Shown here piece after piece: positions 4,303 through 37,682 of a DNA stretch of 64,000 nucleotides. Positions within the stretch are counted from its first letter, which is position 1, and every line of letters starts with the position of its first letter. The stretch comes from a bacterium (GTDB taxonomy: Bacteria; Acidobacteriota; Blastocatellia; HR10): NCBI GenBank assembly GCA_041640655.1, contig JBEPZV010000006.1, positions 23,000-86,999 on the forward strand, in the 5' to 3' direction. The notes beneath the pieces are model-generated. The model made no database searches and was not told the DNA's origin. It was given only the letters and a program-made list of their open reading frames with translations. Both the position numbers and the translations under genes were made by a program.

Positions 4303-4318
4303 GGGGGGAGGACGCGCC

Positions 4319-10321: not shown

Positions 10322-12034
10322 ATGGGCTCAGGTTCTCCACAAGTGGTGGGATTGAGAAAGTCACGTCTGATAACAAAAAGCATCCTTTGTTTGCTGGGTG
10401 TTCTTGCAGGGGGATGGCCTGAGGCTCTCACTATTCTCACTACACGGGACCCTGCTGATAGGTCCTTCAAGGTCATTGCTGCCGGTGCTTCTTCTCATCG
10501 TGCCCGTGAGTTGAGGAGACAGGGTGCGTCGAACCGACCGGCGAATCAAGATACTGAGGCCTTCTGGAAGCTGAAGGCGGAGGAGGGGTTCTCGTTTGCT
10601 TCTGGTGCTTGGTTGGACTTGGGTTTTGTCCAGGCCCAGACGCAGACACGGATTCTTCCCATGCGAACGATACGTATTGGGTTGAACCCAACGCGTTTCT
10701 CGGAATCGGGTGAGGTCCTCGCGGAGTTTGATACCAGTACGGCACAGAGGCACTCGCGAATCGTCCTCACGGCTACGGGACCTTTCATCTTGCTGCAGTC
10801 GACATGTGAAGAGGGCAGCATTCCCATTGCGTTCGGGGAAGCTGGGGAGGCCTTTGCCTTCACAGCGACTTTTGGGGGGATCGCCGTCGAGTTCCCCTCT
10901 GGGATCACTGTGAGTCTGATAACGAATAGCATTTGCATAGCTCCCGTTGCATCTGACGTTCTCCTTGCGGTCATGAGCATTCGACGTCGCAATCTGAACC
11001 GCGCTGGGAATCCCTTTGAGCCACCCTACTATCGGGGTGTGCTTGAGATTCAGCGCGCCACAGGCCTTGGCGAATCGGGGCTTCGGCTCATCAATGTCCT
11101 TGATCTTGAAGAATACTTGCAGGGCGTCATCACCAACGAGATGCCCGCCTCGTTTCATCCCGAGGCATTACGAGCTCAAGCGGTGGCAGCTCGCACCTAC
11201 GCTTTGGCCAATCGAGGCCGCTTCGCCAGCCGAGGGTTCGATCTTGACGATTCGACGCTCTCGCAAGTTTATCGCGGTGTGCTCTCCGAACATCCGAACG
11301 GCACGGCAGCCATTCAGAGCACGCGCGGATTGGTCGTCGTCCGGGATGGGGAACTGATTCCCACATTCTACTCGTCCTCGATGGGCGGGCATACGGAGGG
11401 CATCGAATGGATCTTCAATGCTCCGGCTGATCAACTTCCCGGGTCAAATGCTCATCCGGCGCTGCGGGCCGTTCACGATGGTGATTTCCCGGTGCCTGTG
11501 GATCTCTTGTCGGACGAAGGGGCGCTGGTGTTCTACAGCCGGAGTTGGGATCATTTCGATAGCCCGCAGCGCAGCGGAAACTCCCGCTACCGATGGGTAG
11601 TCACGCGCAGTGTGGAGTTCATTGCTGAGCGTCTGGCCAGCACTCGCGGCCTCTGGCTTGGTACGATCCTGGACGTGATCGCGACGCTGCGCAGCCCGTC
11701 AGGACGCATCGCTCAACTGCAAATCGTAGGCGAGCGCGGGACGGTGACGCTGCAGGGGTGGCGAACACTGCGGGATTTCTTCCAGCTGCTCAACAGCCCG
11801 AGTGCCATCGTCCCACGGCGAGATGCCACGGGACGGGTGACGGGCTTTGATCTCTACGGTGGGGGATGGGGGCATAATGTCGGCATGAGTCAGTATGGAG
11901 CACACGGTCGGGGCCGCAGCGGACAGACCTTTCGGGAGATTCTCGCCGCCTATTACATGGGCGCTGAAGTCGTTTCCATCGAGGTTGAGGCGTCTGAGAA
12001 GCCCAATTGGGTGATCTGGCGAGAGCGCCGGTAG
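10322..12034 (+). CDS. SpoIID/LytB-domain lytic transglycosylase
   Basis: YRGVLE, INVLDLEEYLQGVITNEMPASFHPEALRAQAVAARTYA, QVYRG, GGGWGHNVGMSQYGA. Start codon uncertain. Confidence 0.88.
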   Translation: MGSGSPQVVGLRKSRLITKSILCLLGVLAGGWPEALTILTTRDPADRSFKVIAAGASSHRARELRRQGASNRPANQDTEAFWKLKAEEGFSFASGAWLDLGFVQAQTQTRILPMRTIRIGLNPTRFSESGEVLAEFDTSTAQRHSRIVLTATGPFILLQSTCEEGSIPIAFGEAGEAFAFTATFGGIAVEFPSGITVSLITNSICIAPVASDVLLAVMSIRRRNLNRAGNPFEPPYYRGVLEIQRATGLGESGLRLINVLDLEEYLQGVITNEMPASFHPEALRAQAVAARTYALANRGRFASRGFDLDDSTLSQVYRGVLSEHPNGTAAIQSTRGLVVVRDGELIPTFYSSSMGGHTEGIEWIFNAPADQLPGSNAHPALRAVHDGDFPVPVDLLSDEGALVFYSRSWDHFDSPQRSGNSRYRWVVTRSVEFIAERLASTRGLWLGTILDVIATLRSPSGRIAQLQIVGERGTVTLQGWRTLRDFFQLLNSPSAIVPRRDATGRVTGFDLYGGGWGHNVGMSQYGAHGRGRSGQTFREILAAYYMGAEVVSIEVEASEKPNWVIWRERR

Positions 12035-12295
12035 TGAGAGAGGCGCGTTGCCTGTCGCGCCATGTCAGTATGGATAGCCATCGTCTGGAGTGCGGGGGAA
12101 CGGCGGACAAAAGCCTCGCAGGGGTTGTGTTAATTGTGCACCGGGCGAAGATCAACCATGAGAGCGCCGCAGCGTCTGACGCGCAGATGGTATCGGGCTG
12201 AAGGCCGCTCGGCTGCTTGACCTCCTCGGGCTGGCGGAAAGTTGTGGATGTGCGCCAGATGCATGGGGAAGGTGCACGATCTTTGGAAGCGCATC

Positions 12296-12323
12296 GAGTC
12301 CGATAAGAAATCTTCTGACATAA
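12296..12323 (+). other. Candidate degenerate dif-like Xer site
   Basis: 11-6-11 layout GAGTCCGATAA-GAAATC-TTCTGACATAA in an AT-rich intergenic patch between convergent genes near the skew inversion; right arm deviates from TTATGT. Confidence 0.35.
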
Positions 12324-12358
12324 AATCTATAAATAGCGCGCCATCAACGGGGAGTTGC

Positions 12359-14775
<2,417 letters not shown>

Positions 14776-14812
14776 GCTCGCCCCTCCTGCTTCTTGAACT
14801 CATGAGCGCGTG

Positions 14813-14842
14813 ACTGTATCACATCGACAATCGGCGTGTCAA
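14813..14842 (-). promoter_or_regulatory. sigma70-type promoter of metK-ahcY
   Basis: TTGACA-N18-TACAGT with TG extension on the minus strand, about 37 nt before the GTG start. Confidence 0.65.
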
Positions 14843-14871
14843 GAAAACGCTCCCGATGCCCTGCCGGTGAT

Positions 14872-15756
14872 TCACGCTCGAGGGTGGCAGCGATCGTAAA
14901 TCTGACGAAGGCGCTCGTTGGTGACATAGGTGTACACCTGGGTCGTACTGAGATCAGCATGTCCGAGCATCATCTGAACGGATCGCAGATCGGCCCCGTG
15001 CTCCAGAAGATGTGTGGCGAACGTATGGCGCAGCATATGGGGCATGACGCGCCCCAGTCCGGCCGCGCGCCCGTATCGCGCGACAATCTTCCAAAGGGCT
15101 TGACGCGTCAGCGCACGCCCTCGCGGCGAGATGAAAAGCCACGCCGAAGTCCTCTGCCCCAACCACCGCTGTCGCACCGGAAGATACCTCAGGACCCACT
15201 CGATCGCCGAGCGACCCAGCGGAACCAACCGCTCTTTGCTCCCCTTCCCCAAACAGATCACAATCCCTTGATCCACATCCACATCCGTGAGCTTCAAGGC
15301 GACCAACTCTGACGCCCTCAATCCGGTCGCATACAAGACTTCGAGAATCGCGCGATCCCGAATCCCAATATCTCGAGTCACATCAGGTTGCTCAAGTAAA
15401 AGATTAACCTCTTCGACCGTGAGGAACTTCGGGAGCATCTGCCAAGACCTTGGAGTATCAAGACCTGCCGTCGGATCGGTTTTCAAGACGCCGTCGAGGA
15501 TCAAGAACTTGAAGAAATTTCTCAACGTCGTCATGCTTCGCGCGATGCTCTTCGCATCATACCCCCGCTCCTTCATCTCCCGAAGGAAGTCCCGAACGTC
15601 CTCCCGCGAGAGGCTCGGCAAATCTCTCCCCCTCTCCCGCCTCGCCCAGGCAGCGGCCTGCTCCAGGTCACGGCGATAGGCCTCGATCGTGTTGGCCGAG
15701 AGCCCTCGCTCGACTCTCAACGACGTGAGGAACTCTCTCACGAGATCGCGCGACAT
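14872..15756 (-). CDS. xerD: Tyrosine recombinase XerD
   Basis: ERGLSANTIEAYRRDL, LYATGLRASEL, GKGSKERLVP, PHMLRHTFATHLLEHGADLRSVQMMLGHADLSTTQVYT; full R-K-H-R-H-Y set. Confidence 0.92.
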   Translation of the reverse strand: MSRDLVREFLTSLRVERGLSANTIEAYRRDLEQAAAWARRERGRDLPSLSREDVRDFLREMKERGYDAKSIARSMTTLRNFFKFLILDGVLKTDPTAGLDTPRSWQMLPKFLTVEEVNLLLEQPDVTRDIGIRDRAILEVLYATGLRASELVALKLTDVDVDQGIVICLGKGSKERLVPLGRSAIEWVLRYLPVRQRWLGQRTSAWLFISPRGRALTRQALWKIVARYGRAAGLGRVMPHMLRHTFATHLLEHGADLRSVQMMLGHADLSTTQVYTYVTNERLRQIYDRCHPRA

Positions 15757-15837
15757 CGTTCGCACCTTGACTCTCTCGCCACAGTCCCCGTAGATTTACT
15801 CACCTTAAATAGCCCATATCGAGGGACCGAGTCAACC

Positions 15838-16875
15838 ATGAGACTCTCCGACATCGCCCGATACATCGGCGCGCGGCTCGAGGGCGAGGATCTCGAAATC
15901 ACGGGGATCGCTCCGATCGCCGAAGCCCAACCCGGAGAGCTGACCTTCATCGCCAATCCCAAGTACGCTCCCCTGATCAAGACGACGCGCGCCTCGGCCG
16001 TGATCGTCGCCGAGGACTTCGCCCCCGCGCCGATCGCGCTTCTGCGAACGCCCAACCCCTATTTCGCCTTCGCTAAAGCCCTGGAGCTGTTCCACCGCCC
16101 TCTTCAACCAGAGCCCGGGATCCATCCGACGGCCCTCGTGCACCCGAGCACCAAGCTCGGCACCGGCGTCGCCATTGGCGCGTACACGGTCATCGCCGCC
16201 GAATGCGAGATCGGCGACCATGTCGTCATCTACCCCCATTGTATGATCTACCCGAACGTCCGCATCGGCGCGCATACGACCATCCATTCCCACGTGACCA
16301 TTCGCGAGAACACGCAGATCGGCGCCCGCGTCATCATCCACAACGGAGCGCGCATCGGCACCGATGGCTTCGGATACGCGCGCGATCCCGAAGGCCGATG
16401 GTATAAGATCCCTCAAACGGGACGGGTGATCATCCGAGACGGGGTCGAGATCGGCGCCAATACGACCATTGACCGCGCGGCCATTGGCGAGACGGTCATC
16501 GCCGACCACGTGAAGATCGATAATCTGGTGCAGATCGGTCATGGGTGTAAGGTGGGCGAGAACTCGCTCTTGTGCGCTCAGGTCGGACTGGCCGGAAGCA
16601 CTGAGGTCGGGCGCAACGTCATGCTCGCCGGTCAAGTGGGGGCCGCCGGCCATCTCCGCATCGGCGATAATGTGATCGCCACGGCTCAAACTGGCATCCC
16701 CTCCTCGGTCGAACCCAACCGCGTCATCTCGGGTTATCCGGCCATGGAGAATGCCCTCTGGCGGCGCGCCTCGGTCCTCTTCGCCCGCTTGCCGGAGATG
16801 TACCGCCTCTTGCGCGAGATGAAGGGACGGCTGGAGCGTCTCGAACGCCTCCATGCGCAGACAAATTCGGAGTGA
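15838..16875 (+). CDS. lpxD: UDP-3-O-acylglucosamine N-acyltransferase
   Basis: NPYFAFAKA, hexapeptide repeats, IGTDGFGYA, VEIGANTTIDRAA, KIDNLVQIGH. Confidence 0.96.
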   Translation: MRLSDIARYIGARLEGEDLEITGIAPIAEAQPGELTFIANPKYAPLIKTTRASAVIVAEDFAPAPIALLRTPNPYFAFAKALELFHRPLQPEPGIHPTALVHPSTKLGTGVAIGAYTVIAAECEIGDHVVIYPHCMIYPNVRIGAHTTIHSHVTIRENTQIGARVIIHNGARIGTDGFGYARDPEGRWYKIPQTGRVIIRDGVEIGANTTIDRAAIGETVIADHVKIDNLVQIGHGCKVGENSLLCAQVGLAGSTEVGRNVMLAGQVGAAGHLRIGDNVIATAQTGIPSSVEPNRVISGYPAMENALWRRASVLFARLPEMYRLLREMKGRLERLERLHAQTNSE

Positions 16876-16878
16876 GCC

Positions 16879-17424
16879 ATGACGCTGAAGATCGAGAACC
16901 GAACGACTGTGCGCCTCAACGTCCAGAAGCTGACCGAGCACATCCACTCTGTTCTGGAGACGATCCCTCGCGAGCATCTGCGCGGAGTGAGCAAGCTCGT
17001 TCTGGTGGATTACGTCACGGATTCGCGTCTGGACCCGCAGACCCGCCGCGAGCTCCCCGGACTCTATCATCCGCGGATGCCCGGTTCCCCACACGCCTGG
17101 CTGGAGATCGCGCTCAAGCCCCTCACCCCCGAAGGCTCGCTCTGGAAGCGCCTCTCGGCCCGTCTGGCCCTCAAGGCCAATGTGACGGCCACGCTGCTGT
17201 CGCTCATCGCCCAGCACTATTATCTGACGCTCTCGCACGGTGTGCGGAAGGGGCAATACGAACAGGCCATCCGAAGTTACGTGGATCGGCAGCTCTCGAT
17301 CTACGCCCGAACGCGCAAGGGGTGGCGAGCGCGACTCATCCGCCCTTTCCTCCCTTGGCTCGAAAAGCTCGCCCGCTGGTTGCAGAAGAAATCCCATCAG
17401 CAGGCGCGCCAAAGACGCGCCTGA
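16879..17424 (+). CDS. Hypothetical protein (181 aa)
   Basis: Starts 3 nt after the lpxD stop and fills the gap to parB with genome-typical codon usage. Confidence 0.75.
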   Translation: MTLKIENRTTVRLNVQKLTEHIHSVLETIPREHLRGVSKLVLVDYVTDSRLDPQTRRELPGLYHPRMPGSPHAWLEIALKPLTPEGSLWKRLSARLALKANVTATLLSLIAQHYYLTLSHGVRKGQYEQAIRSYVDRQLSIYARTRKGWRARLIRPFLPWLEKLARWLQKKSHQQARQRRA

Positions 17425-17427
17425 CGC

Positions 17428-18240
17428 TCAGACGGCCCGCTCGATCTCCTCGGCCACTCGGCGCAGACACTCGGCCACTTCTCCAGGAGTCACCTCCGCC
17501 TTCTTGAACCGCACCTCCAGACGGAATTCGGCCGCGCGATAGCGATAGACGAAGGGGCGAGGCCGCTTCTGCACCGCCCGCTTTTGACGCCGAACGTCAT
17601 CTCGCCGCAGCCCCTCGCGGCGGATGCGCTCAATGAGCGCTCGCATCTGCTCGACATCCTTCAATCGGGCGATCTGCAGCAGCACGGACTTCGACTGAAT
17701 GTCGGCGCGCCGACAGAGTTCCTTGATCTCCTCCGGCATCTCGGCCAACGCCAACGTCTCGGTCACCGACGATCGCGACTTCCCGATCTTGCGCGCGATC
17801 TCCTCATGCGTGTAGCCGAACCGCTCGACCAGCATCTTGAACCCCTGCGCCTCCTCAAACGGCGTCAGGTCCTTCCGCTGCAAGTTCTCGATCAGGTTGA
17901 TCTCGGCCACCGCCTGATCGTCCACGTCCATCTCAATGCACGGGACCTCGCGCAAACCGACAATCAGCGCCGCTCGATACCGCCGCTCGCCGCTGATGAT
18001 CATGAACCGCCCATCCCCCTTCGGACGCACAAGGAGCGGCTCCAGAATCCCCTTCTCCCGAATCGAGGCCACCAGATCCGAGAGATCCCCGATCTCCACC
18101 CGAGGCTGCTCCAGATTCAGATCGAGCCGATCAATGGGGATCATCCGTCCGATCGGAGCCCCTGTGCGCGAGGCCAACTGCTCGACAAAGTGCAGATCAT
18201 GCCGCAATCGGAGATTCGCCGGAAGTCCTCGCTTAGACAC
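17428..18240 (-). CDS. parB: ParB/Spo0J-family protein (atypical)
   Basis: [28 protein letters not shown]ase motif, [27 protein letters not shown]. Confidence 0.88.
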
Positions 18241-19027
18241 GCTCGATCACCTCCTCGCAGAGTCGTTCGTACTCCAGCGCCGCCGTCGACTGGGGCGCGA
18301 AGGTGAAGATCGATTCCCGATACGCCGGGCTCTCCTCCAAACGCACCGACCGCGAGATCACGGTTCGGAACACCTGATGGCCGAAGACCTGCTTGATCTG
18401 CTCCAGAGAATCGCGCGCGATGGCCGTCCGCCGATCATAGAGCGTCACGACGACCCCAAGGAGCAAGAGATTGGGATTCGGCCGCGCTTTGATCTTCTCC
18501 ACCGTCTCCAACAGATCATCCGTGCCCTCCAGAGCGAAATACGAGGATTGAATGGGGATGATCAGATGCGAGGCGGCCACCAGGGCATTCACCGTCAACA
18601 GACCGAGCGTCGGCGGCGTATCCAGGATCACGAAGTGGTACTGACCCTTGATCTGATCCAGCCGATCCTTCACCCGATAGGGCGCATCGAACTCCCCAAT
18701 TAACATGCTCTCAAATTTGGCCAAGCTGATGCGCGAGGGCAGCAGCTCCAGATTCTGAACCGGCGTCGCGCGGATCACCTGCTCGGCCGTCACCGAACGA
18801 TCCATGAGCCAATCGAAGATCGAGACCCCGACCTCACGCAGGTCCACATAGGAGAGCGAACTGTTGGCCTGCGGATCCAAATCCACCAGCAGCACGCGAT
18901 AGCCTTTGCGCGCCAGTCCGGCCGAGAGATTGATCGCCGTGGTCGTCTTCCCAACCCCGCCTTTTTGATTCGCGATCGCGATGACGACGGATCGGATCGT
19001 CTTCTCCGTCACGGCCTGTCGCCTCAC
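18233..19027 (-). CDS. parA: ParA/Soj-family ATPase
   Basis: [15 protein letters not shown] deviant Walker [25 protein letters not shown]. Confidence 0.93.
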
Positions 19028-19036
19028 CCAAAAGGC

Positions 19037-19510
19037 TCACCTCCGATACGGACCACCGGATTCCCCACCGATGTCGTCGGACCACTCCTCGGATTCGACC
19101 TCCTCATCCGAGATCACACTGCGCGAGCTGCGCATGACGTGCTCGGCCACGAAGATCGGACTGTCGGTCCGAAGCGCCAGGGCGATCGCATCGCTCGGGC
19201 GCGAATCCACAATCACCTTCTCCCCGCCGACATCCAGAATGATGACGGCATAGAAGGTGCTGTCGCGCAGATCGGTGATGATGACCCGCTCCACGGTCGC
19301 CCCGAGCTGAGCGATGACGTTCTTCAAGAGATCGTGCGTCATCGGACGCTGAGGCACCGCCTTCTCGATCTCCATCGCGATGGCATTGGCCTCGAACACC
19401 CCGATCCAGATGGGAAGCATCGCCTCGGAGGCCACATCCTTGAGGATGACCACGGGCGAATTGTTCGTCGGATCGAGGATGAGCCCCCGAACCTTCACTT
19501 CACGCTCCAT
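19037..19510 (-). CDS. Bifunctional nuclease family protein (DUF151)
   Basis: LPIWIGVFEANAI, RPMTHDLL, TFYA, DSRPSDAIALALR. Confidence 0.92.
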   Translation of the reverse strand: MEREVKVRGLILDPTNNSPVVILKDVASEAMLPIWIGVFEANAIAMEIEKAVPQRPMTHDLLKNVIAQLGATVERVIITDLRDSTFYAVIILDVGGEKVIVDSRPSDAIALALRTDSPIFVAEHVMRSSRSVISDEEVESEEWSDDIGGESGGPYRR

Positions 19511-19525
19511 AAGATGTCCCTCGCC

Positions 19526-20854
19526 TTAACGGAGAACCTCGAGGCTCCGCCCGAAGAGACTATGCGGATTCACTCTCGTGATCTCAACTTTCACGAGAGC
19601 TCCTTCGATGTTCTCTCTTGAATCCTCAAAGTTTACGACGATATTCTCGCTCGTATGACCGGACCAGTGATATTCTGACTTAGCACTCTTTCCTTCAACC
19701 AAAACTTCAACAACTCGGCCGACATATCGCTGCCACCTCTTGAGCTGAATCTCCCGCTGCCGCTGCTCAAGTCGCATCAACCGCTCCGTCTTCACCTCAT
19801 CCGGAACCTGATCCGATAACCGCGCGGCCGGCGTCCCCGGCCTCGGCGAGTACTTGAAGATGTAAAGCCCATCGAATTCCACCTCCTCGATCAACGCCAT
19901 CGTCTGCTGAAAGTCCCGCTCGGTCTCCCCAGGAAACCCCACGATGATGTCCCCCGTCACCGCGATCTCCCGCTTCGCCGAACGGATCCACTCGATGCGC
20001 CGCAGGTATTCGGTCCTCGTGTAGCCGCGGTTCATCAACGCCAGAATCCGATCCGACCCCGACTGCGGCGGCAGATGAACCCAATTGCAGAGGTTCGGAT
20101 ACTCCTCGATCATCCGCACGATCTCCGGCGTGAAATCCCTCGGATGCGAGGTCGTGAACTTCAGACGCGGGATGCCGCCGGCTTCAGCCAAGAGCCGCAG
20201 TAGCTTCGGGAAGCAGAGGCGCTGCCCGAGCTCCAGCCGCTCGCTCAGGCCATAGCTGTTGACGTTCTGCCCAAGCAGATGCACCTCCCGATACCCGGCC
20301 TCGGCCAAGGCCCGCACTTCGGCCAGGATCTTCAGCGGGGATCGGCTGCGCTCTCTGCCGCGCGTGAAGGGGACGATACAGAAGGTGCAGAACTTATCGC
20401 ACCCCTCCATGATGGTCACATAGGCGACGTGTCGCAGGCGCCGTTCAGCCGGTGAGATCTCCAGAAACTCGGGACGATTCGGCGTGCGCGTCTGCACGAG
20501 CGGACGTCCCTGCTGCAGGCGCTCGAGGATCTCTGGCAGCTCCCCGAGCGCCTGAGTCCCCAGGACGAAATCCACGCCCGGCACCCGCTCCAGCAACCGC
20601 CGTCCGTACAACTGCGCGACGCACCCTATGACCCCAATGAGCACGTCAGGGGACCGGCTCCGGAGCTGCCGAATGCGGCTGTAGACCTTCTCCTCGGGCC
20701 TCTCCCGCACCGAGCACGTGTTGAACAGGATGAGCTCGGCCTGTTGCGGATCATCGCTCCACTCATAGCCGAGACGGCGCAAGAGCGCCGCCGCCTTCTC
20801 CGAATCCACGACGTTCATCTGACATCCGAAGGTCTCGATGAAGAAGCGCTTCAT
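19526..20854 (-). CDS. miaB: tRNA methylthiotransferase MiaB
   Basis: ETFGCQMNVVDSE, NTCSVRE, GCDKFCTFCIVP, LLGQNVNSY, FTTSHPRD, C-terminal TRAM domain. Confidence 0.96.
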   Translation of the reverse strand: MKRFFIETFGCQMNVVDSEKAAALLRRLGYEWSDDPQQAELILFNTCSVRERPEEKVYSRIRQLRSRSPDVLIGVIGCVAQLYGRRLLERVPGVDFVLGTQALGELPEILERLQQGRPLVQTRTPNRPEFLEISPAERRLRHVAYVTIMEGCDKFCTFCIVPFTRGRERSRSPLKILAEVRALAEAGYREVHLLGQNVNSYGLSERLELGQRLCFPKLLRLLAEAGGIPRLKFTTSHPRDFTPEIVRMIEEYPNLCNWVHLPPQSGSDRILALMNRGYTRTEYLRRIEWIRSAKREIAVTGDIIVGFPGETERDFQQTMALIEEVEFDGLYIFKYSPRPGTPAARLSDQVPDEVKTERLMRLEQRQREIQLKRWQRYVGRVVEVLVEGKSAKSEYHWSGHTSENIVVNFEDSRENIEGALVKVEITRVNPHSLFGRSLEVLR

Positions 20855-20905
20855 TGTCGGCCCGCCGACATTCAAACTAATCTCCTGAAATGCAAGAAAA
20901 TACCA

Positions 20906-22567: not shown

Positions 22568-22575
22568 CGGTCACA

Positions 22576-22642: not shown

Positions 22643-22678
22643 CACTTTTCGCGCGCAACCTCGGGACGAGGGGGACGA

Positions 22679-24604: not shown

Positions 24605-24607
24605 CCT

Positions 24608-25933: not shown

Positions 25934-25965
25934 GCATCTCACTCCAATTGAGGAGAGCGACGCTT

Positions 25966-26916: not shown

Positions 26917-26925
26917 CGCTCGCGA

Positions 26926-26956
26926 CCCCCGCGCGATCCCCGCGATCGCGCGGGGG
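26926..26956. repeat. Perfect 13-bp GC hairpin after pal
   Basis: CCCCCGCGCGATC-cccgc-GATCGCGCGGGGG; no U-tract; stem resembles the 39-nt element. Confidence 0.6.
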
Positions 26957-27066
26957 CTTGCCTCTGACTCGCTCCTGTCGTAACATCTGGCGTGAAGCCG
27001 GAGTTGGCTCCGGTGGCCTCACCTCACAAGAGGCCCCCTGAGCCATCTTCCGCAAGGAGGAAACCG

Positions 27067-27924: not shown

Positions 27925-27947
27925 TGTCATCGAAGGAGAAGAAGCTT

Positions 27948-28364
27948 ATGTCCTTCAACAAGATCATCGTCGTCGGCAACCTGGGACGCGATCCCGAGCT
28001 TCGCTACACCCCGCAAGGCATCCCCGTGTGCACGTTCTCCGTCGCCACCAATGAGCGCCGTCGCGACAGCGCCGGAGAGCTTCAAGAACGCACGCTCTGG
28101 TTCCGCGTGACCGCGTGGCGCCGACTCGCCGAACTGACCCACCAGTATCTGAGAAAAGGAAGCCTGGTCTACGTCGAGGGACGACTCTATTTGGACGAGT
28201 ACACGGATCGGGACGGATTCCAGCGCACGCAGCTTCGCATTGAAGCTTCGGACGTGCGTTTCCTCGATCGAAAGCCAGCCGAAGCCCTTGAGGAGGGAAT
28301 CGCCGAAGAGCCCCTCAGCCCTATCTCCGGCCCTGAACCGGGCGAGGATGACGTCCCATTTTAG
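27948..28364 (+). CDS. ssb: Single-stranded DNA-binding protein
   Basis: NKIIVVGNLGRDPELRYT, KGSLVYVEGRL, C-terminal DDVPF. Confidence 0.96.
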   Translation: MSFNKIIVVGNLGRDPELRYTPQGIPVCTFSVATNERRRDSAGELQERTLWFRVTAWRRLAELTHQYLRKGSLVYVEGRLYLDEYTDRDGFQRTQLRIEASDVRFLDRKPAEALEEGIAEEPLSPISGPEPGEDDVPF

Positions 28365-28500
28365 ACGTCATGACTTCATGTGAAACTCGATCCTCGCCTC
28401 CTGACGGAAGTCGCCTCACCGGAGAGCCGGATCGAAAGAGACATCCGGGCAATAACCATCGTTCTTCGCGAGCGATACAGCGACTCGTTCCCAAAGGACT

Positions 28501-29307
28501 TCATGGTCGGGGCTCTCCCTGCCTATTCACCCCAGCCCCCTTCCCCAGCTCATGTGACGCCTCATCAGAAGCCGGATGAAGCGCAAGAGGGCCAATCCCC
28601 TCAAGGAACGACGTGAGTTCAGAAAGAGGGTGAACGACAGGAAGTGTCACAGGAGCGGACACAGGGAGCGGAAGCCACACTTCGCTACGTGCCGATTCGC
28701 CGAACGTCCTCACTCCGACCTTCTCCCTGTGCGCGAGCGCGCGCATCGGGCGCTTCGCCAGTCGCCGATCGGCCCGATGCTTCCCCAGCTTCTGTCCATT
28801 CCCGGCGACGAACGCCTTCCCCCCCACGGCGATCGCGCGCAGCGGTACCGAGAGAACACCCGAAGGAGCATCGCTCACGATCCGAAGCCAATCGGCGACA
28901 GCCCCCGGCTTTTCAGCAGCGAACGCCACATTCACCCGTACGCTCACGCCAGGACCAATCCGCGCCGGAAGCAAAGGAGCCCGCGCCACAGCGAACACCC
29001 CCTCAGTTCGAACCTCGGAGATCTTCACCGGAGCCGTCCCCACGTTCGTCAGGACGAAGGAGACCTCTCTCACACTCCCACAGGAGATGGATCCCAGGTC
29101 ACCATCCGAAGGCGAAAGGCGGAGCGCTGGAACTCCCCGTTCCTCCCCCCGCCAGAGAAGCCGCTCATCAGAGGATCGAGCGCTCCATCCGCCACGAAGT
29201 CCCTCCAGAGGAAAGCCGGAGAACGCTCCACCCCACAAGCGAAGGATCCCCGCACCCATCACCACACTCCCGCCAATGAGCACGAGCACAAGACGTCGCA
29301 CGCGCAT
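28501..29307 (-). CDS. Membrane-anchored protein with Ig-like (ASH/DUF1573-type) domain
   Basis: N-terminal hydrophobic segment; DLGSI..FVLTNVGTAPVKISEV..IGPGVSVRVNVAF..LRIVSDA pattern. Confidence 0.6.
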   Translation of the reverse strand: MRVRRLVLVLIGGSVVMGAGILRLWGGAFSGFPLEGLRGGWSARSSDERLLWRGEERGVPALRLSPSDGDLGSISCGSVREVSFVLTNVGTAPVKISEVRTEGVFAVARAPLLPARIGPGVSVRVNVAFAAEKPGAVADWLRIVSDAPSGVLSVPLRAIAVGGKAFVAGNGQKLGKHRADRRLAKRPMRALAHREKVGVRTFGESARSEVWLPLPVSAPVTLPVVHPLSELTSFLEGIGPLALHPASDEASHELGKGAGVNRQGEPRP

Positions 29308-29414
29308 AGTCGCTCCTCCTCCACAAGATTCGGACTGAGCCTATCCACTTGTCCATCCACGTCCGCATGTCGGCCTGCATCTTGACTGAATCCGGACGAA
29401 AAGTCAAGCGAAAT

Positions 29415-31346
29415 CTACAGCCCCGACCTCTGCCCGACCGCGTGCGCGCCACGCATCCCCACGTAGATGCCTCCACCGGTCGAAGCTGCAAAAACCCGAT
29501 CCCGATCATGAGGATCAAAGGCCACAATCCACGCCCGCCAGACCGCCCGATCAATCCGCCGCCACGTCTCCCCCCGATCGGATGAAAAGTACACCGCCCC
29601 CGTCCGATAGTCCGCGACCGACATCTCTCGTGGTTCATCAGGGCGAACGGCGATCGCCGTGACATCCGCATGAGGCAGTCCATGAGCACACCGCTCCCAA
29701 TCCCGGCCGCCGTTTCGCGATCGATAGAGTCCCCACGGAGTCCCGACGAAAAGAAGCTCAGGATCCTCCGGATGTTCAAGAAACACGTGAACTCTCCCCA
29801 GACGGCGAGGTAACTCACGCTCTATCCATGAGGCACCACCATCGGCGCTCATCAGAAGGCGTCCCTCTGCCCCGATCCATATTCGCCCGGTCCGCCCCAC
29901 GTGCACCACCACCCAGTCACCCCCCGAATGCACGCGCTCCCAACGGCCCTGCACCTCATCATAGCGAAAGAGTCCGCTGGCCGTGAGCGCCAGGATCTTT
30001 CCATCCCGAGTCTCGGCCAGCTGCCGAGTCTCCTCCGGTAAAGGAGGTCCTCTCCTCCAACTCCCCCCTCGATCGTCCGAGATGAAGAGTCCCATATCCG
30101 TGAGCACCCAGAGCCGTCGCCCCTCCCGCCGCGATTGCAGGATCACCCGTACCGATCCCGATACTCGCCCGCTCGGCCACCAGCTCATGCCGCCATCTTC
30201 GCTGATGAAGAGGCTGCCTTCAATCCCCCCCTTCATCACCCCACAGTAGATGCGCCCCGGGACATCTCGATCCACGAGAAGGCTCGTGACAACCCAACTG
30301 GAGAACCCTCGATTCGAAGGCTGAAACGTCATCCCCCCATCACGGCTGATCCAGATGCCCGCCTCTTCCGTAGCAATGAGAACACGCCGGGGTTCTTGAG
30401 GATGAAGGGCGATGTCCTGGACAGTCAACCTTCTATTTGTTATCAGACGCCACGTTGCCCCGCCATCTCCCGTCCGCCACAACCCCTCGGTCGTCCCCGC
30501 AAAAAGCACCATGGTCTGCCCCACCGGCCGCGCCAACACCAAAACCCGACGACTTCGTGACGGCATCGCCGTCAAGCGCACCCAGCTTCGCCCTCCATTC
30601 GCCGAACGATAGACCCCCGTACACGCGCTCAACCACATGAGCTCCGGATCCCGTTCGTCCATGAGAATGCTGAAGATCTCCGAGTCGTCCAGAATCCCCG
30701 TCTCCCGACTCCCCGCCTTCACCCACGTCCGTCCCCCATCGGTCGTCTTCCAGGGCAAATGCCATGTCCCCACATACAGGACCTGATCCGACCGTGGATG
30801 AATCGCCACGGACTCGATGTTTCGAATCTCCGGGTCTCCAGCCGGAGAGATCCGCCGCCACGATTCCCCCCGGTCCTCGCTCCGAAAGACTCCATCCAAA
30901 GCTCCGAAGATGAGAACTCGCGGAGCGCTCGGCGCTTGAGCCAGAGCCCGCACGGCATGCCCCTCCGTCCCCGACAAAAGCGCCCATGTCCGCCCGCCAT
31001 CACGACTCCGATAAATCCCCCCGTTGTTTTCAGCGAACACGGACCACCCCCCGACGTAGATCGTTTGAGAATCCTCCGCATCCACCAAGATGTCGGAGAC
31101 GCAGAATCCCGGACGATGGAATCCCGAGAGCGCCTGCCAGCTCTCCCCTCCATCCTCGGAGAGGTAAAGTTGCCCATCGCAGGTTCCGACGAAGATCCGG
31201 TGCGGATCACGAGGATCAACGGCCAGCCGCCGTGCTTCTCCGCCAAACGGCCCCACCAGGGTCCAGGACCAGGGCGTCTCCCAATCGTCCTCCACACCCG
31301 GAACCACCATCACAAGCAGAAGAATCCCCACAAGCCCTCGCCCCAT
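29415..31346 (-). CDS. Secreted BNR/Asp-box beta-propeller protein (VPS10/YCF48-like)
   Basis: Signal peptide; GPFGG start; more than 10 SxDGGxTW-type Asp-box repeats; SD GGAGGAGG. Confidence 0.88.
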   Translation of the reverse strand: MGRGLVGILLLVMVVPGVEDDWETPWSWTLVGPFGGEARRLAVDPRDPHRIFVGTCDGQLYLSEDGGESWQALSGFHRPGFCVSDILVDAEDSQTIYVGGWSVFAENNGGIYRSRDGGRTWALLSGTEGHAVRALAQAPSAPRVLIFGALDGVFRSEDRGESWRRISPAGDPEIRNIESVAIHPRSDQVLYVGTWHLPWKTTDGGRTWVKAGSRETGILDDSEIFSILMDERDPELMWLSACTGVYRSANGGRSWVRLTAMPSRSRRVLVLARPVGQTMVLFAGTTEGLWRTGDGGATWRLITNRRLTVQDIALHPQEPRRVLIATEEAGIWISRDGGMTFQPSNRGFSSWVVTSLLVDRDVPGRIYCGVMKGGIEGSLFISEDGGMSWWPSGRVSGSVRVILQSRREGRRLWVLTDMGLFISDDRGGSWRRGPPLPEETRQLAETRDGKILALTASGLFRYDEVQGRWERVHSGGDWVVVHVGRTGRIWIGAEGRLLMSADGGASWIERELPRRLGRVHVFLEHPEDPELLFVGTPWGLYRSRNGGRDWERCAHGLPHADVTAIAVRPDEPREMSVADYRTGAVYFSSDRGETWRRIDRAVWRAWIVAFDPHDRDRVFAASTGGGIYVGMRGAHAVGQRSGL

Positions 31347-31369
31347 GTCCTCCTCCGCACGCCAGAGGT

Positions 31370-32644
31370 TCACGCATAGATCCCGCGCATGCGCACGTCA
31401 TACGCCACGCGATCAATGGCCAGCATGTACGCGGCCGTTCGCAAGCTCACCCCATATCGCTCCGCGTACTGGAGCACATCGCGAAAGCTGTTGGTCATGA
31501 CCTCCTTCAGCCGATGATTCACCACGCGCTCGCTCCAGAAATACCCCATTCGATCCTGCACCCACTCGAAGTAGCTCACCGTCACCCCTCCCGCATTCGC
31601 CAGAATGTCCGGCACCACGAGAATCCCTCGCTCCTGGAGAATACGATCGGCCTGCGCCGTCGTCGGTCCATTCGCCCCCTCGCAGAGGATGCGACAGCGA
31701 ATCCGCTCGGCATTGCGAGAGGTGATCTGGTTCTCGACGGCCGCCGGGACCAGCAGCTCGCACTCCAGCTCGAGCAACTCCTCATTGGTGATCGGCTCCG
31801 CCTGCGGGTACCCCAGAAAGCTCTTCTGCTGGCGGTGGTATTCCAGGACCTCGGGGATGTTCAGGCCGTCGGGATTGAAAATCCCTCCATGAACGTCCGA
31901 GATGGCGATCACCTTGTACCCGGCCTCGTGCATGAGCCGAGCGGCGACCCCCCCGACATTGCCCGCCCCCTGAATGACGACCCGCGCCCCCTTGGGCGAG
32001 AGCCCCAGATGCCGAAAGGCCTCATTGGCCACGATCAAAAGCCCGCGTCCGGTCGCCTCGCGTCGTCCCTGCGATCCCCCCAAGCCAATCGGCTTCCCCG
32101 TCACCGACGCCGTCACCACATGGCGCGCGTGCATCGAGTACGTGTCCATGATCCAGGCCATGACCTGCTCGTCCGTATTCAAGTCCGGTGCCGGCACATC
32201 TCGCTCCGGTCCCAGGATGTCCAGAAGTTGCGCCGTATAGCGGCGGGTCAACCGTTCCAACTCCCCCCGCGACAACTCGGCCGGATTGCAGACGACGCCA
32301 CCTTTCGCCCCCCCGAAGGGGATATTCACGACCGCGCACTTCCAGGTCATCCACGCCGCCAGAGCCCGAATCTCATCCAACGTCACATCGGGCGCGAAGC
32401 GAATCCCCCCCTTGGCCGGCCCGCGCGCGAAGTTGTGCTGCACCCGATACCCGACGAAGACCTGCAAGTGCCCGTCATCCATGATCACAGGAATGTACAC
32501 GGTCACCTCCAGGCTCGGATACCGCATGAACGTATAGAGGTCCGGTTCCAGACGCAGGAGCCGCGCCGCTTGATCGAAATGATAGAGCATGGAGTCGAGC
32601 GGATTCTCCTCCTTCACGTCTTCGACCTTCTCGAATTCTCTCAT
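31370..32644 (-). CDS. gdhA: Glu/Leu/Phe/Val dehydrogenase (glutamate dehydrogenase)
   Basis: [55 protein letters not shown]. Confidence 0.93.
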
Positions 32645-32733
32645 CGTCACCCCTCGCTGCGGTGAAGATCATCCATCTCCGAGCAAGATTTTAGCACACG
32701 CCCCTGCGAAGACAACGCACGGGCTGCGCCCCA

Positions 32734-32763
32734 TTGCCCAGAGAGACCGCATCTGCCTATACT
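32734..32763 (+). promoter_or_regulatory. sigma70-type promoter of uvrA
   Basis: TTGCCC-N18-TATACT, 9 nt before the ATG, no SD. Confidence 0.55.
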
Positions 32764-32772
32764 TCTTCGCTT

Positions 32773-35598
32773 ATGGGAGAGAAGACGGCGCTCATCGTAC
32801 GCGGCGCGCGCGTGCACAATCTCAAGAACATCACCTGCCAGATCCCGCACGGGAGTCTGACGGTCATCACCGGCGTCTCTGGATCGGGGAAGTCGAGCCT
32901 GGCCTTCGACACGATCTACGCCGAAGGGCAACGCCGATACGTGGAATCGCTCTCGGCCTACGCCCGCCAATTCCTGGAGCGAATGAGGAAGCCGGACGTG
33001 GACGAGATCTCGGGCCTCTGCCCGACGATCGCCATTCACCAAAAGCCCCTCAGTCGGAATCCGCGCTCGACCGTCGCCACGCAGACGGAACTCTACGATT
33101 ACCTCCGATTGCTCTTTGCGCGGATTGGACGCGTCTTCTGCCTGAACTGCGGGATCGAAGTCACCCGCCAAACGCCCGAGACGATCGCCGATCACCTGCT
33201 ACAGTTTCCCGAAGGCCTCCGATTCTATGTCCTCTTCCCCCTCCGGCCAAAGGATCCGGTCGGCAACGGTCGCTCCCGACGCCGGCGCGATGACCTCTCG
33301 CCACAGGCGCATCTGCTCTCGCTGCGACAACGCGGCTTCACGCGCCTCTACGTGCAGGGGGATGTCCGGGAGATCACCGATCAGGAGGCGCTCCCCTCCC
33401 TGGAGGCGGCCAGCGTCCTCGTGGACCGCCTCGTCGTCCGACCCGACGTGCGATCGCGCTTGATCGACTCCCTGGAGTTATGCTATCGAGAAGGCGGTGG
33501 CATCGCCGAGATCGTCCTGCTCAGCGATCCTCCGCAAAAGCTCACGTTCACGGAGCAGTTGACGTGCCCGCGCTGCCAGGCCCGTTACCTCGATCCCGAG
33601 CCCCAACTCTTCAGCTTCAACAGCGCCTACGGCGCGTGCCCGAGTTGCCAGGGATTCGGCAATCTCATCGGGCTCGATCTGGACCTGGTCATCCCAGATC
33701 GCGGGCGCTCCCTGCAAGAGGGCGCCATCGAGCCGTGGACGAAGCCGCAATTCGAGTGGGCGCAGGCCGAGCTGCTCGCCTTCTGCCGCCGCGCCAAAAT
33801 CCCCACCGATGTCCCCTTCGCCCAACTCTCCCGAGAGCACCAGCGATGGATCCTCAACGGCAAGGATGACTTCCCCGGCGTGCGCGGCTTCTTCGAGTGG
33901 TTGGAGACCAAGAAATACAAGCTGCACGTGCGCGTCTTCTTGAGCAAATATCGCGGCTACACGACCTGCCCGACGTGCAAGGGGACGCGCCTGAAACCCG
34001 AAGCCTTGGCCGTGCGCGTCGGCGGGAAGACGCTCCCGGACATCTGCGCCATGAGCATCGGCGAGTGCGCCGCCTTCTTCCACGCCCTCACCCTCACGCC
34101 GCACGAGGACGCCATCGCCGGTCGGCTCCTGCATGAGATCCGACAGCGCCTGACGTTCCTGGTGGAGGTCGGCCTCGACTACATCACGCTTGATCGGCTC
34201 TCCTCCACCCTCTCCGGCGGAGAGGCGCAGCGCATCCAGCTCGCCACCAATCTCGGCGCTTCCCTGGTCGGCACCCTCTATGTCCTGGATGAGCCGAGCA
34301 TCGGACTGCATCCGCGCGATACCCACCGCCTCATCCGCCTCCTCAAGCGCCTGCGCGATATCGGCAACACCGTCCTGGTCGTCGAACACGACCGCGAGAT
34401 GATCCTCGCCGCCGATCACGTCATTGACCTCGGCCCGGGAGCGGGCGAGCACGGCGGCGAGGTCGTCTTCCAAGGTCCTCCCGAAGCGCTGCTCCGCAGC
34501 TCGACCTCGCTGACCGGGAAGTATCTGCGCGGTGAACTTCAAGTCCCCGTTCCTTCCATGCGCCTTCAGCCGACAGCGCGCCGCCTCTCGATTCGCGGCG
34601 CCCGCGCGCATAACCTCAAGGATATTGACCTGGACATCCCCCTGGAGATGATGGTCTGCATCACGGGCGTCTCCGGCTCCGGGAAGTCCACGCTCGTCTA
34701 CGACGTCATCTACGCCAATCTCAAAAAACAACGCGGGGAGTGGAACCAGCCCGTCGGTCCGGTCCGGAAGATCGAGGGAGGACAGTGGCTCGAAGACATC
34801 GTCCTCGTGGATCAATCCCCCATCGGACGCACCCCGCGCTCCAACCCGGCGACCTATCTGAAGGTCTTCGACGCCATCCGCGAGCTCTTCGCCGCCACGC
34901 GCGATGCCCAAGCGCGCGGCCTCACCCCCGCGCACTTCTCGTTCAATGTTCCCGGAGGCCGATGCGAAGCCTGTGAGGGCAACGGCGTCGTGACCGTCCA
35001 GATGCAATTTCTGGCCGATGTCGAACTGATCTGCGAGCAGTGCCAGGGGACGCGCTTTCAACCGGCTCTTCTGGAGGTCCGGTATCGAGGGAAGACCATC
35101 CATGATGTCCTCACCATGACCGTCCGCGAAGCTCTCCACTTCTTCGCCGATGTGCCGAAGATCACGCGGCGGTTGGAGATCCTGGATCACATCGGCCTCG
35201 GCTATATCCGCTTGGGCCAATCGGCGACAACCCTCTCCGGAGGCGAGGCCCAACGGATCAAGCTCGCCGCCCACCTGGCGAAGGAGACGAGTGCCCGAAC
35301 CCTCTATCTCTTCGACGAACCGACCACGGGCCTTCACTTCGATGACGTGCACAAGCTGATCGCCGCCTTCCGCCGATTGATCGCCGCCGGAGGCTCGGTC
35401 ATCATCATCGAGCATAATCTGGACGTCATCAAAGCGGCGGACTGGATCATTGACCTCGGCCCCGAAGGCGGAGAGCGCGGTGGATATGTCGTCGCTCAAG
35501 GCCCACCGGAGGTGATCATGCGCGTCCCCGAATCGTACACGGGTCGGTTCCTCGCCGCCCACCTGCAACGAGAGAGAGAGACAACGTCCGCATCGTGA
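32773..35598 (+). CDS. uvrA: Excinuclease ABC subunit A
   Basis: GARVHNLK, two GVSGSGKS Walker A motifs, two LSGGEAQR signatures, CxxC zinc sites, DEPTTGLH. Confidence 0.95.
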
Positions 35599-35661
35599 CG
35601 GCCACTTTTCAGGCCGCACCGCGTGTGCTAAAGTACATCCTTCAGCATGGAGACGATGCCT

Positions 35662-36159
35662 ATGAAGCGATTCCTTGTGCTCACAGCCGCACTGATCGCC
35701 CTCGGAGCGCATCCCCACCCGCCGCAGAAGCGAATACCCCTGAAGCTCCCCTCCCTCGACGGTCGCACAGTGGATCTGGCCCAATATCGAGGGCAGATCA
35801 TCGTCCTCTCCTTCGGCGCCACCTGGTGCCCCCCATGTCGCGAGGAGCTGCCCGTCCTGCAAAAAGTCGCCGATCAGTACAAGGGACGCCCCGTCGCCTT
35901 CTTCTGGGTCAGCATAGATGATCCCGATGTCTCCGCGGAACAACTGCGCCAGTTCGTCTCGCGACTCGGCGTGCGTATCCCCGTGCTTCGCGATCCCGAG
36001 GCGAGCATCCTCCAGGAGTTCAAGACCGATGGAGTTCCTGCCCTCCTGATCCTCGATCGGGACGGAACCCCCATTGGCCCCCCGCACGTGGGCTTCGCCG
36101 ATCCGGAGAGCTACAGAAGCGAGCTGACCAAAACTCTTGAGGCCCTGCTCAAGCCATGA
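35662..36159 (+). CDS. TlpA/ResA-like thiol-disulfide oxidoreductase
   Basis: Signal/TM segment, FGATWCPPCREELP, cis-Pro loop GVP. Confidence 0.88.
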   Translation: MKRFLVLTAALIALGAHPHPPQKRIPLKLPSLDGRTVDLAQYRGQIIVLSFGATWCPPCREELPVLQKVADQYKGRPVAFFWVSIDDPDVSAEQLRQFVSRLGVRIPVLRDPEASILQEFKTDGVPALLILDRDGTPIGPPHVGFADPESYRSELTKTLEALLKP

Positions 36160-37058
36160 GCCCGCCCCCCGTGGTCCTGGAGACGAATATCCCGACCTAT
36201 CCCCTCCTTCGTCGGGGGAAGGTCCGCGATATCTATGCCATTGATGAGGAGCGCCTGTTGATCGTCGCAACCGATCGCATCTCGGCGTTCGACGTCGTCC
36301 TGCCCGACGGGATCCCCGGTAAGGGAGCGATCCTCACCCAGCTCTCGGCCTTCTGGTTCCGCCTCCTGGAACCGATCGTCCCGCACCACCTCATCACGAC
36401 GGAGATCGAAACGCTCGAGGGCCTCACGGCCGCCGAGCGCGATCTCTTGCGCGCGCGTAGCATGCTCGTCTATCGTGCTCGTCCAATCCCCATCGAATGC
36501 GTCGTCCGCGGGTACCTGGCGGGATCGGCCTGGAGCGAGTACCAACACTCGGGAACCGTCTGCGGCCTCCCCCTGCCCGAAGGGCTCGTTGAAGCCGCTC
36601 GCCTCCCGGAGCCGATCTTCACCCCGGCCATCAAAGCTGCCGAAGGACACGATGTCAATATCTCCGAGGCCGAGATGGCCGATCGCATCGGGACAGAGCT
36701 GACCCGACGGCTCAAGGACCTCAGCCTGACGCTCTATAGCCGCGCTGCCGACTACGCCCTCGCCCGCGGCCTCATCCTCGCCGATACGAAGTTCGAGTTC
36801 GGATGGCGAGATGATGCGCTCCTGTGGATTGATGAAGCGCTGACGCCGGATTCCTCCCGCTTCTGGGCCGTCGAGGACTACGCGCCGGGACGTTCGCAAC
36901 CCTCCTTCGATAAGCAATTCCTCCGCGACTATCTGAATGCCATCGGATGGGACAAATCGCCTCCGGCTCCCCACCTCCCCCAGCCCATCATCGAGCAAAC
37001 GGCCGAGCGATACCGAACAGCATATCGCCTCTTGACTGGAGAGGACCTGAAGCCATGA
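36156..37058 (+). CDS. purC: SAICAR synthetase
   Basis: RGKVRDIY, ATDRISAFD, ECVVRGYL, LADTKFEFG, DEALTPDSSRFW. Confidence 0.97.
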   Translation: MSPPPVVLETNIPTYPLLRRGKVRDIYAIDEERLLIVATDRISAFDVVLPDGIPGKGAILTQLSAFWFRLLEPIVPHHLITTEIETLEGLTAAERDLLRARSMLVYRARPIPIECVVRGYLAGSAWSEYQHSGTVCGLPLPEGLVEAARLPEPIFTPAIKAAEGHDVNISEAEMADRIGTELTRRLKDLSLTLYSRAADYALARGLILADTKFEFGWRDDALLWIDEALTPDSSRFWAVEDYAPGRSQPSFDKQFLRDYLNAIGWDKSPPAPHLPQPIIEQTAERYRTAYRLLTGEDLKP

Positions 37059-37543
37059 CCGTTCTCGATGCCCTCGTTCTCTTCACCGTCGGCCTCTCAA
37101 TGCTCAGGGGCTTCGCTCGAGGACTCGTGCGAAGCCTGATCACGACCATTGCCGCAATCGGTGGTTTCTTCCTGGCCAGCTCTTCCTACCGCGGGGCCGT
37201 GCCACTTGTCCGCCCCATGGTCGAATCTGAGACGATGGCCCACCTGCTCGCCTTCCTCGGCACCTATCTGCTTGTGCTCGCCATCGGCCTCATGCTCGCT
37301 CGCATTCTTCACTCGGGCGTGCGACGAGCCCATCTGAGCTGGCTCGATCACCTGATGGGCAGCCTCTTCGGATTCCTACGCGGATGGGCGCTCTGTTCGG
37401 TCGTCTACCTCGCCCTGAGCGTCTTCCCCTGGCACCCCGATCTGCTGCGCGAGAGCCGATCCTCCCCATATCTCGAGCGCGGAGCAGCACTCATCAGCCG
37501 CTTGGCCTCCCAACACCTGCCCCGTTTTCCATCCCCACTGTAG
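37055..37543 (+). CDS. cvpA: CvpA (colicin V production) family membrane protein
   Basis: RGFARGLVR, four TM segments, LDHLMGSLFGFLRG; ATGA overlap with purC. Confidence 0.85.
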   Translation: MTVLDALVLFTVGLSMLRGFARGLVRSLITTIAAIGGFFLASSSYRGAVPLVRPMVESETMAHLLAFLGTYLLVLAIGLMLARILHSGVRRAHLSWLDHLMGSLFGFLRGWALCSVVYLALSVFPWHPDLLRESRSSPYLERGAALISRLASQHLPRFPSPL

Positions 37544-37682
37544 GCGCGTCCCCCTTTGCTCCCTCCGCGCCATACGACGGGCCACGAAGACCACTCCAAA
37601 AACCGCGAATTTAGTCCCCCCCCAGTGAGCGCGCGAACGATCCAAAAAGAATAGCAGTTATCGGACGTGAGTTTCACAAGAG

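Follow-up and report, generated by a model that had tools for sequence, protein, structure and literature searches.

The window analysed here, a stretch of 64,000 nucleotides (G000:C6:23000-86999) from a bacterium of the class Blastocatellia (Acidobacteriota), carries six copies of the nonamer GTCYGATAA that converge on a single point. One copy is the left arm of a dif-like recombination site at the replication terminus, and the five others are lone copies of this arm, oriented toward dif from either side. Similar arrays surround dif in relatives across the class. We incline, at slightly better than even confidence, to the view that the lone half-sites would act as oriented roadblocks or unloaders, each formed by a single Xer monomer, for traffic that runs from the origin to the terminus. 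The host genome (G000) is a draft of 128 contigs and 3,125,879 bases with a completeness of 90%.

Six exact copies of GTCYGATAA were counted in the window against 0.41 expected, a number reached in none of 100 shuffles. The whole genome holds nine copies, six of them in a 27.3-kb stretch of the window and three on contig C1, and Markov models of order 2-5 predict 7.4-10.4 genome-wide. The motif is not over-represented in the genome overall, yet it is extremely clustered; the chance of such clustering is about 2.5e-8. Its choice was not cherry-picked, since its words head an unbiased ranking: when the 2,236 8-mers that occur four or more times in C6:30-62 kb were ordered by local enrichment, the first three were TCCGATAA, TCTGATAA, and GTCTGATA. 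Variants of the motif with one mismatch were not enriched in the window (20 found, 14.3 expected; nine of 100 shuffles reached 20), so that the near match at 17220 listed in the initial annotation carries no weight.

The six exact copies stand precisely at the positions and on the strands listed in that annotation. Its claim that all of them converge on one interval also holds, and the interval contains a 28-bp dif-like site (12296-12323, + strand), composed of a left arm GAGTCCGATAA (12296-12306), the centre GAAATC (12307-12312), and a right arm TTCTGACATAA (12313-12323). The site has the layout 11+6+11 bp and a partial dyad, the inner part of which is imperfect (ATAA vs TTCT). It lies in the spacer between a SpoIID-domain gene and the convergent ahcY, where the GC skew switches from positive to negative (at about 12-13 kb of the window). 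The copy at 12298 had been listed as another polar copy; its position and strand stand, and its identity changes to the left arm of this site.

The remaining five copies are lone half-sites, two to the left of dif on the + strand and three to the right on the - strand, all pointing toward dif. On the left, the copy at 10365-10373 (GTCTGATAA) falls either just upstream of the SpoIID/LytB-domain open reading frame (ORF) or within its 5' part, and the copy at 10914-10922 (GAGTCTGATAA followed by CG) lies inside this gene; both are also present in L014 of the same genus. On the right, the copy at 13405-13413 is placed inside ahcY (codons CGT CTG ATA ATA), that at 30440-30448 inside a BNR/Sortilin-type gene, and that at 37658-37666 lies 17 nt downstream of the stop of an adenosine-kinase gene. 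The same-genus genomes G004 and G001 have a copy at a distance from dif comparable to that of the 30440 site.

The initial annotation had remarked that the GATAA end of the motif resembles one arm of Xer/dif sites. Comparison across the class goes further: the left arm of dif is invariant there and matches the motif exactly. Among 20 dif-like sites of the class, this arm reads G[ACG]GTCYGATAA, with nine invariant positions, and is followed by 6 bp and a right arm that begins with TTATG (14 sites), TTACG (four), or TTCTG (two) and of which only the inner 5-6 bases are kept. In class-level relatives, the innermost copy invariably forms the left arm of a 28-bp site built like dif; ATAA-N6-TTAT or ATAA-N6-TTAC is found at dif, and full sites GAGTCYGATAA-N6-TTATGT lie opposite dnaA. 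Within the genus, the dif-like sites beside ahcY (five other genomes; L014) share the left arm of the window, and their right arms read TTATGA (twice), TTACGA, TTACGT, and TTCTGA. Elsewhere in the class, the sites are GAGTCCGATAA-TAGGTA-TTATGTATCAC in G015, directly after xerD; GAGTCTGATAA-TGAACA-TTATGTGAAAA in G019, also after xerD; GAGTCTGATAA-TGTACA-TTATGTAGATC in L016; GAGTCTGATAA-TCAACC-TTATGTCAGAA and GAGTCTGATAA-TATAGA-TTATGTTTCTA on contigs 1 and 2 of G031; and GAGTCCGATAA-CAAATC-TTATGTAACAG in G054. Judged by these sequences, GTCYGATAA is the left arm of dif throughout the class Blastocatellia.

The arrangement is like that of dif/XerCD in that the innermost copy is part of a 28-bp, 11+6+11 site at the terminus, with xerD nearby and a second Xer paralogue in the genome. 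The xerD gene (14872-15765, - strand) scores 362 bits against TIGR02225, above the cut-off of 329.6, and stays below the cut-off of the XerC model; it lies 2.5 kb from dif in the window and directly adjoins dif in other genera. The paralogue (47% identity) is located at G000:C4:4458-5372. Named relatives of the xerD gene assign the organism to the class Blastocatellia of the Acidobacteriota. According to the available part of PMC5357621, other bacteria conserve the right half-site of dif and the left one less so, and a XerC homologue binds the left. The conservation of the arms is reversed here, with a left arm that is invariant across the class and a right arm that retains its inner 5-6 bases.

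The terminus location suggested in the initial annotation holds in the relatives, in which both the placement at the terminus and the polarity recur and dif lies opposite dnaA. In relatives assembled into one or two contigs, dif is found at 49-55% of the replicon from dnaA: at 54.7% in G031 (two contigs; contig 1 of 2,639,773 bases, dnaA at 397, dif at 1,443,705), at 50.3% in G023 (two contigs; contig 1 of 2,659,040 bases, dnaA at 391, dif at 1,338,588), and at 49.4% in G054 (one contig of 9,536,885 bases, dnaA at 5,074,436, dif at 358,692). In G044, contig C2 (7,921,682 bases) carries dnaA at 5,872,232 and dif at 1,804,215. A dif of its own, at 212,258, and a separate array of half-sites are found on the second contig of G031 (1,075,403 bases). 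In G000, dnaA is located on contig C3, apart from the contig of the window (C6), and the window is placed at the terminus by skew, genes, and polar words: its dif coincides with the GC-skew switch, with convergent genes, and with the flip of the G-rich polar words described below.

Polarity was tallied for one genome per genus in ten genera, counting non-dif copies up to about 100 kb from dif, or those within the fetched stretch or among the matches listed (150 of 531 in one listing, all but 12 in another). Among these, 77 of the 80 non-dif copies point at dif, namely 5/5 in G000, 10/10 in G015, 7/7 in G019, 7/7 and 6/6 on contigs 1 and 2 of G031, 13/14 in G054, 5/5 in G044, 10/10 in G014, 4/5 in L025, 9/9 in G037, and 1/2 in G017. 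Near-duplicates were omitted from the tally (G001-G004 and G006 of the same genus, L014, L026, G023, and G027), and the convergent order was found in all of them; G012 was omitted as ambiguous, and G007, G013, G016, and G018 likewise stand outside the tally owing to fragmentation or partial listing. On contig 1 of G023, all 16 copies over 2.66 Mb run eight on the + strand and then eight on the - strand. In G054, 20 copies far from dif are randomly oriented, so that polarity in this genome is a property of the terminus zone. The scan of the genome and its relatives by strand and position that had been proposed for this motif thus found copies that are enriched around this locus, oriented, and conserved as nucleotide sequence in close relatives.

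Lone copies resemble the complete arm beyond the nonamer. Among 56 non-dif copies, the flanks favour those of the full arm, with G at -2 (29 copies) and A or C at -1 (42), and the start of the central region shows preferences too, for C or T at +9 (47) and for G at +10 (31); by these preferences, the lone copies match the full arm. A second-arm TTAT signal at +15 to +20 was not found among the 56 copies.

Selection acts on the DNA of the half-site in ahcY. Each of the six genomes of the genus has CGT CTG ATA AT at the site, while the synonymous positions nearby differ among them (GGC/GGT, GCA/GCG, ATA/ATG, ATT/GTG/GTA/ATA, GCC/GCG/GCT/GCA, and TCC/TCA/TCG). The peptide that includes the motif is GARLI[IM][IV]AS in 6/6 genomes of the genus and in 0/24 other genomes of the class; the latter all have a GA[DE]A[VI]LIAS-like peptide at this position and lack the motif. 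AhcY was altered at three or four residues to accommodate the site, which has been kept ever since. The initial annotation had taken the rare codons at the motif as a sign of selection at the DNA level, a view that the invariance of the motif amid varying synonymous neighbours confirms and extends. In several families, ahcY is a few kb or less away from xerD or dif; in family f7 it is far from dif (ahcY loci of G017, G037, G025, G010, G008, G014, G034, and G042 were compared for synteny). As the distance between ahcY and dif varies among families, the order xerD-metK-ahcY-dif of the window represents an old, variable synteny.

These results bear on the view that the copies have no function, being decayed dif duplicates left by dif-integrating elements or by-products of composition, coding, or tandem stops. 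Such elements do leave dif-like repeats, according to the available part of PMC5357621, and G014 has two full dif-like sites, in direct orientation and 15 kb apart. Integration gives direct repeats, however, and the copies on the right-arm side are inverted; no second-arm remnant accompanies the copies; the ahcY copy has displaced a conserved peptide and does not vary within the genus; and the motif is the top locally enriched word, with copies that are not gene stops and are mostly antisense to ORFs. We therefore disfavour this explanation and consider it very improbable.

Several trivial causes were also tried. Tandem stop codons (TGA TAA) at gene ends were rejected, as the copies are internal to genes or intergenic and do not form gene stops. 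An orientation linked to transcription would fit the window, in which all six copies are sense, but in relatives a crude longest-ORF rule (ORFs of at least 150 aa) assigned 15 of the 56 non-dif copies to the sense strand, 29 to the antisense strand, and 12 to places outside long ORFs, and this cause was rejected too. A structured RNA was rejected as well, since a scan of the window and two stretches of contig C1 at Rfam gathering thresholds matched only a tRNA at 53194-53266.

Some further left arms and dif-like sites were recorded. Two additional full left arms are located at G000:C1:213458 and 217494 (L145:8458 and 12494), 4 kb apart in direct orientation, with about 20 nt in common upstream (GGAAGCSCATYGAGTCCGATAA) and a local GC-skew switch between convergent genes; one of them is followed by GTAATG-TTACG. 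This pair may represent either an insert with dif on both flanks or a second replicon's dif. The two complete dif-like sites of G014 (G014:C1:308969 and 324151; L112), directly oriented and 15 kb apart, bear the signature that would be expected of an element integrated at dif. In G012, two left arms with 10 nt between them form a near-perfect palindrome (GAGTCTGATAA-N10-TTATCGGACTC; G012:C172:6651-6682, L012, with copies at 6653 and 6672), which lies 11 kb from a separate dif-like site at 17633.

A second class of polar words coexists with the motif. An unbiased polarity scan of 15,748 8-mer pairs took in the surroundings of five dif sites, 385 kb in all (one site each in G000, G015, and G019, and one on either contig of G031). 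The highest-ranking words, given as copies toward and away from dif, were GGGGGAGG (35:0), GTCTGATA (28:0), GGGTGGGG (30:1), TCTGATAA (30:1), and GGGTGAGG (38:4), after which the ranking continues with G-rich words; the motif words GTCTGATA and TCTGATAA hold the second and fourth rank. A further G-rich word, GGGCAGGG, points toward dif on both sides (31:4), and GGGGGAGG reaches 14:0 in contig C6 alone. We regard the G-rich words as a candidate family of FtsK-orienting polar sequences (KOPS) for the class Blastocatellia. In E. coli, KOPS are GGGNAGGG (PMC2800217, available part).

GTCYGATAA itself might be the KOPS of this lineage, loading FtsK and steering it toward dif by way of the gamma domain. 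The motif does share with KOPS an orientation that runs 5' to 3' on the leading strand toward dif and flips there (KOPS as described in the available part of PMC2800217), and an FtsK with a gamma domain is encoded. KOPS are G-rich, frequent over the whole replichore, and read by the FtsK gamma domain, whereas the motif is rare and concentrated within tens of kb of dif: its nine copies in 3.13 Mb are about the number expected by chance, and six of the nine lie within 27 kb. Moreover, the separate G-rich words are equally polar and resemble classical KOPS, which makes GTCYGATAA unlikely as the guide of FtsK, and a KOPS function leaves the 9/9 identity with the dif arm unexplained. We consider it quite improbable.

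The genes of the window are arranged around dif. Those on the + strand run up to the SpoIID/LytB-domain gene (10265-12034); from ahcY (12359-13627) onward, metK, the tyrosine recombinase, parB, parA, a nuclease, miaB, and recN follow on the - strand. A conserved cluster recN-parA-parB-X-xerD travels with dif, X being a conserved hypothetical protein of about 181 aa (16879-17424, + strand) that is encoded between parB and xerD in the class and falls into no Pfam family. Genes for SMC and for FtsK are present. The partition genes are parB (17428-18240) and parA (18233-19027), both on the - strand; the initial annotation had called this ParB atypical, and it proved typical by family score. Canonical parS palindromes are located 3-40 kb from dnaA in G000, G031, G023, G054, and G044, including a perfect parS-like palindrome 3 kb upstream of dnaA in G000; none was found in the window or at the terminus of G031, G023, G054, and G044. 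A role of GTCYGATAA as ParB centromere was rejected, because the motif is asymmetric, unlike the palindromic parS of 14-16 bp, and parS is found next to dnaA and not here.

The parA-parB operon is thus located at the terminus and parS on the far side of the replicon (window 17428-19027; L102, L108, L111, L016, and L025), and a partition operon opposite its centromere is unusual. Homologues of protein X at L005:4396-5049 and L009:7591-8217 share 59% identity between two families and 40% with the window copy. The nearest protein-atlas clusters are unnamed, and the commonest known phylum among them is Acidobacteriota. A 526-aa ORF at 15832-17412 (- strand) is probably spurious; the + strand there encodes LpxD (15838-16875) and then protein X. 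Just left of the terminus lies a BatA/MoxR-type cluster (1536-10143, + strand) with DUF4159, an AAA_3 MoxR ATPase, DUF58, a VWA/BatA protein, and DUF4175.

GTCYGATAA could instead be read by a dedicated terminus protein distinct from Xer, with the dif arm merely overlapping one of its sites, and protein X or another factor would be the candidate. Protein X travels with parAB-xerD-dif, and terminus-binding proteins such as MatP are described for other bacteria in the available part of PMC2800217. Against this stands that Xer must bind the left arm of dif in any case, motif included, and that the lone sites agree with the arm at positions -2 and -1 and with the start of the centre. In addition, protein X has no recognisable DNA-binding family, and the parS of ParB is at the origin. 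A dedicated reader is therefore rather improbable in our judgement.

At dif, GAGTCYGATAA has to be recognised by a Xer recombinase, and it is most economical to assume that this protein also reads the lone copies. A lone half-site would be occupied by a single monomer of whichever Xer recombinase recognises the left arm of dif, and we rate such binding as likely. With all copies pointing at dif, the outer face of a bound monomer would be turned toward the origin, and this face would be the first to be met by machines moving from origin to terminus, be it SMC-ScpAB coming from origin-proximal parS, KOPS-guided FtsK, or replication forks. The array could then halt or unload such machines according to the orientation of its sites and would mark off, on each replicon, a terminus zone spanning tens of kb around dif. 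With parS near the origin, SMC would reach the array from the origin side on either arm. SMC would be the most likely target, and FtsK or forks are possible ones. For any single motor, our confidence is less than that for Xer binding.

Two known systems come close to this proposal. As Karaboja et al. reportedly found in 2021, XerD-binding sites of the Bacillus subtilis terminus unload SMC. The available part of PMC9226527 describes this unloading by XerD at additional terminus sites as XerC-independent, and the sites as made up of a true XerD arm, a spacer of 5-6 bp, and the 5 inner bp of another XerD arm. The parallel with these sites, suggested in the initial annotation, holds as an analogy, because extra Xer-type sites besides dif are confined to the terminus and, in B. 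subtilis, used for a purpose other than recombination. It does not extend to the make-up of the sites, which here are lone left arms of XerC type lacking a second-arm signal. The Blastocatellia array is strictly oriented toward dif on both sides (77 of 80 copies). Secondly, a single XerD or Cre monomer on a half-site stopped FtsK in vitro 3- to 5-fold better when approached from its outer face than from its inner face (PMC2800217, available part). The predicted Blastocatellia half-sites would similarly act through a monomer as a direction-dependent obstacle to a translocase, with the outer face as the blocking one. Those half-sites were in vitro constructs, whereas the ones of Blastocatellia seem to be naturally arrayed with the outer face toward the origin.

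Several points weigh against oriented Xer roadblocks. Three of the 80 non-dif copies are misoriented, and G017 has a weak array with one of two copies toward dif; taken together with the 9/9 of G037 in the same family (f5), the array is widespread and not uniform, and no alternative motif is needed. The 80 copies are related partly by descent between genera and do not equal 80 independent events, since copies in parA and in glpX have flanks shared between families, as is expected of inherited sites. The right arm of the window (TTCTGA) differs from the majority TTATGT, and the strand classification of the 56 copies is crude. The motif is called an XerC-type (XerC/CodV) arm by position and by the convention of model bacteria, an assignment by analogy. 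E. coli XerC alone did not stop FtsK in the experiments covered by the available part of PMC2800217, whose authors blame weak half-site binding; by the same analogy, a lone site of XerC type may have low occupancy, unless matters are different in this lineage. Furthermore, a block at the outer face would impede FtsK as it travels to dif and so appears to work against this motor.

The geometry is also that of a replication fork trap, in which polar barriers, formed by an Xer monomer or another protein, would admit forks to the dif zone and block their exit. Ter sites of Tus in E. coli and of RTP in B. subtilis form such traps as opposed polar groups. As in these systems, a few asymmetric sites in two opposed groups flank the terminus on every replicon examined, and the GC skew switches at dif. 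The sites described here differ in matching the arm of a recombination site, and a homologue of Tus (PF05472) or RTP (PF02334) was found in 0/7 genomes of the genus, the controls E. coli and B. subtilis giving matches. A fork trap would reduce the identity with the dif arm to a coincidence or require a second job of Xer, and we know of no precedent for a tyrosine recombinase that arrests forks, so that this explanation appears unlikely. Of the three readers considered in the initial annotation, an Xer subunit is favoured by the dif-arm identity, ParB is not retained given parS near dnaA, and the fork-trap protein is set back by the lack of Tus and RTP in all seven genomes.

Alternatively, the left-arm recombinase on half-sites might be a scaffold that recruits a type II topoisomerase for decatenation at multiple points around dif. 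In E. coli, it is XerC at the XerC box, rather than XerD, that targets topoisomerase IV to dif, as stated in the available part of PMC4865107. A single GyrA/ParC-family gene was found in the 90%-complete genome, and a separate topoisomerase IV may thus be lacking; nor does a scaffold offer a clear reason for strict polarity. This possibility strikes us as highly unlikely.

A bolder form of the roadblock proposal, which we hold tentatively and regard as doubtful, would see in the array a bacterial counterpart of the convergent-CTCF rule. Xer monomers would be one-sided boundary or unloading elements for SMC loop extruders, perhaps also for FtsK, and would define the terminus domain of every replicon. 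The specificity of the left arm would be frozen across the class because the whole set of sites depends on it, and the partner arm would drift. A literature search found no paper on polar half-dif arrays, most subscription journals being outside its coverage.

The marking and organisation of the terminus are little known outside a few model species, and Acidobacteriota have almost no chromosome biology. In this group, plain sequence yields a clean, class-wide signal, a recombinase-arm motif with near-perfect polarity around dif on each replicon, and the motif is a practical marker for dif and the terminus in draft genomes of Blastocatellia. If the proposed roadblock function is true, the second job of Xer, which so far has been demonstrated for Firmicutes XerD, would be found in another phylum too and on the other arm, and the half-site polarity known in vitro would have a natural example. 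It would also offer a readily testable system, since inverting a 9-bp site should change the outcome.

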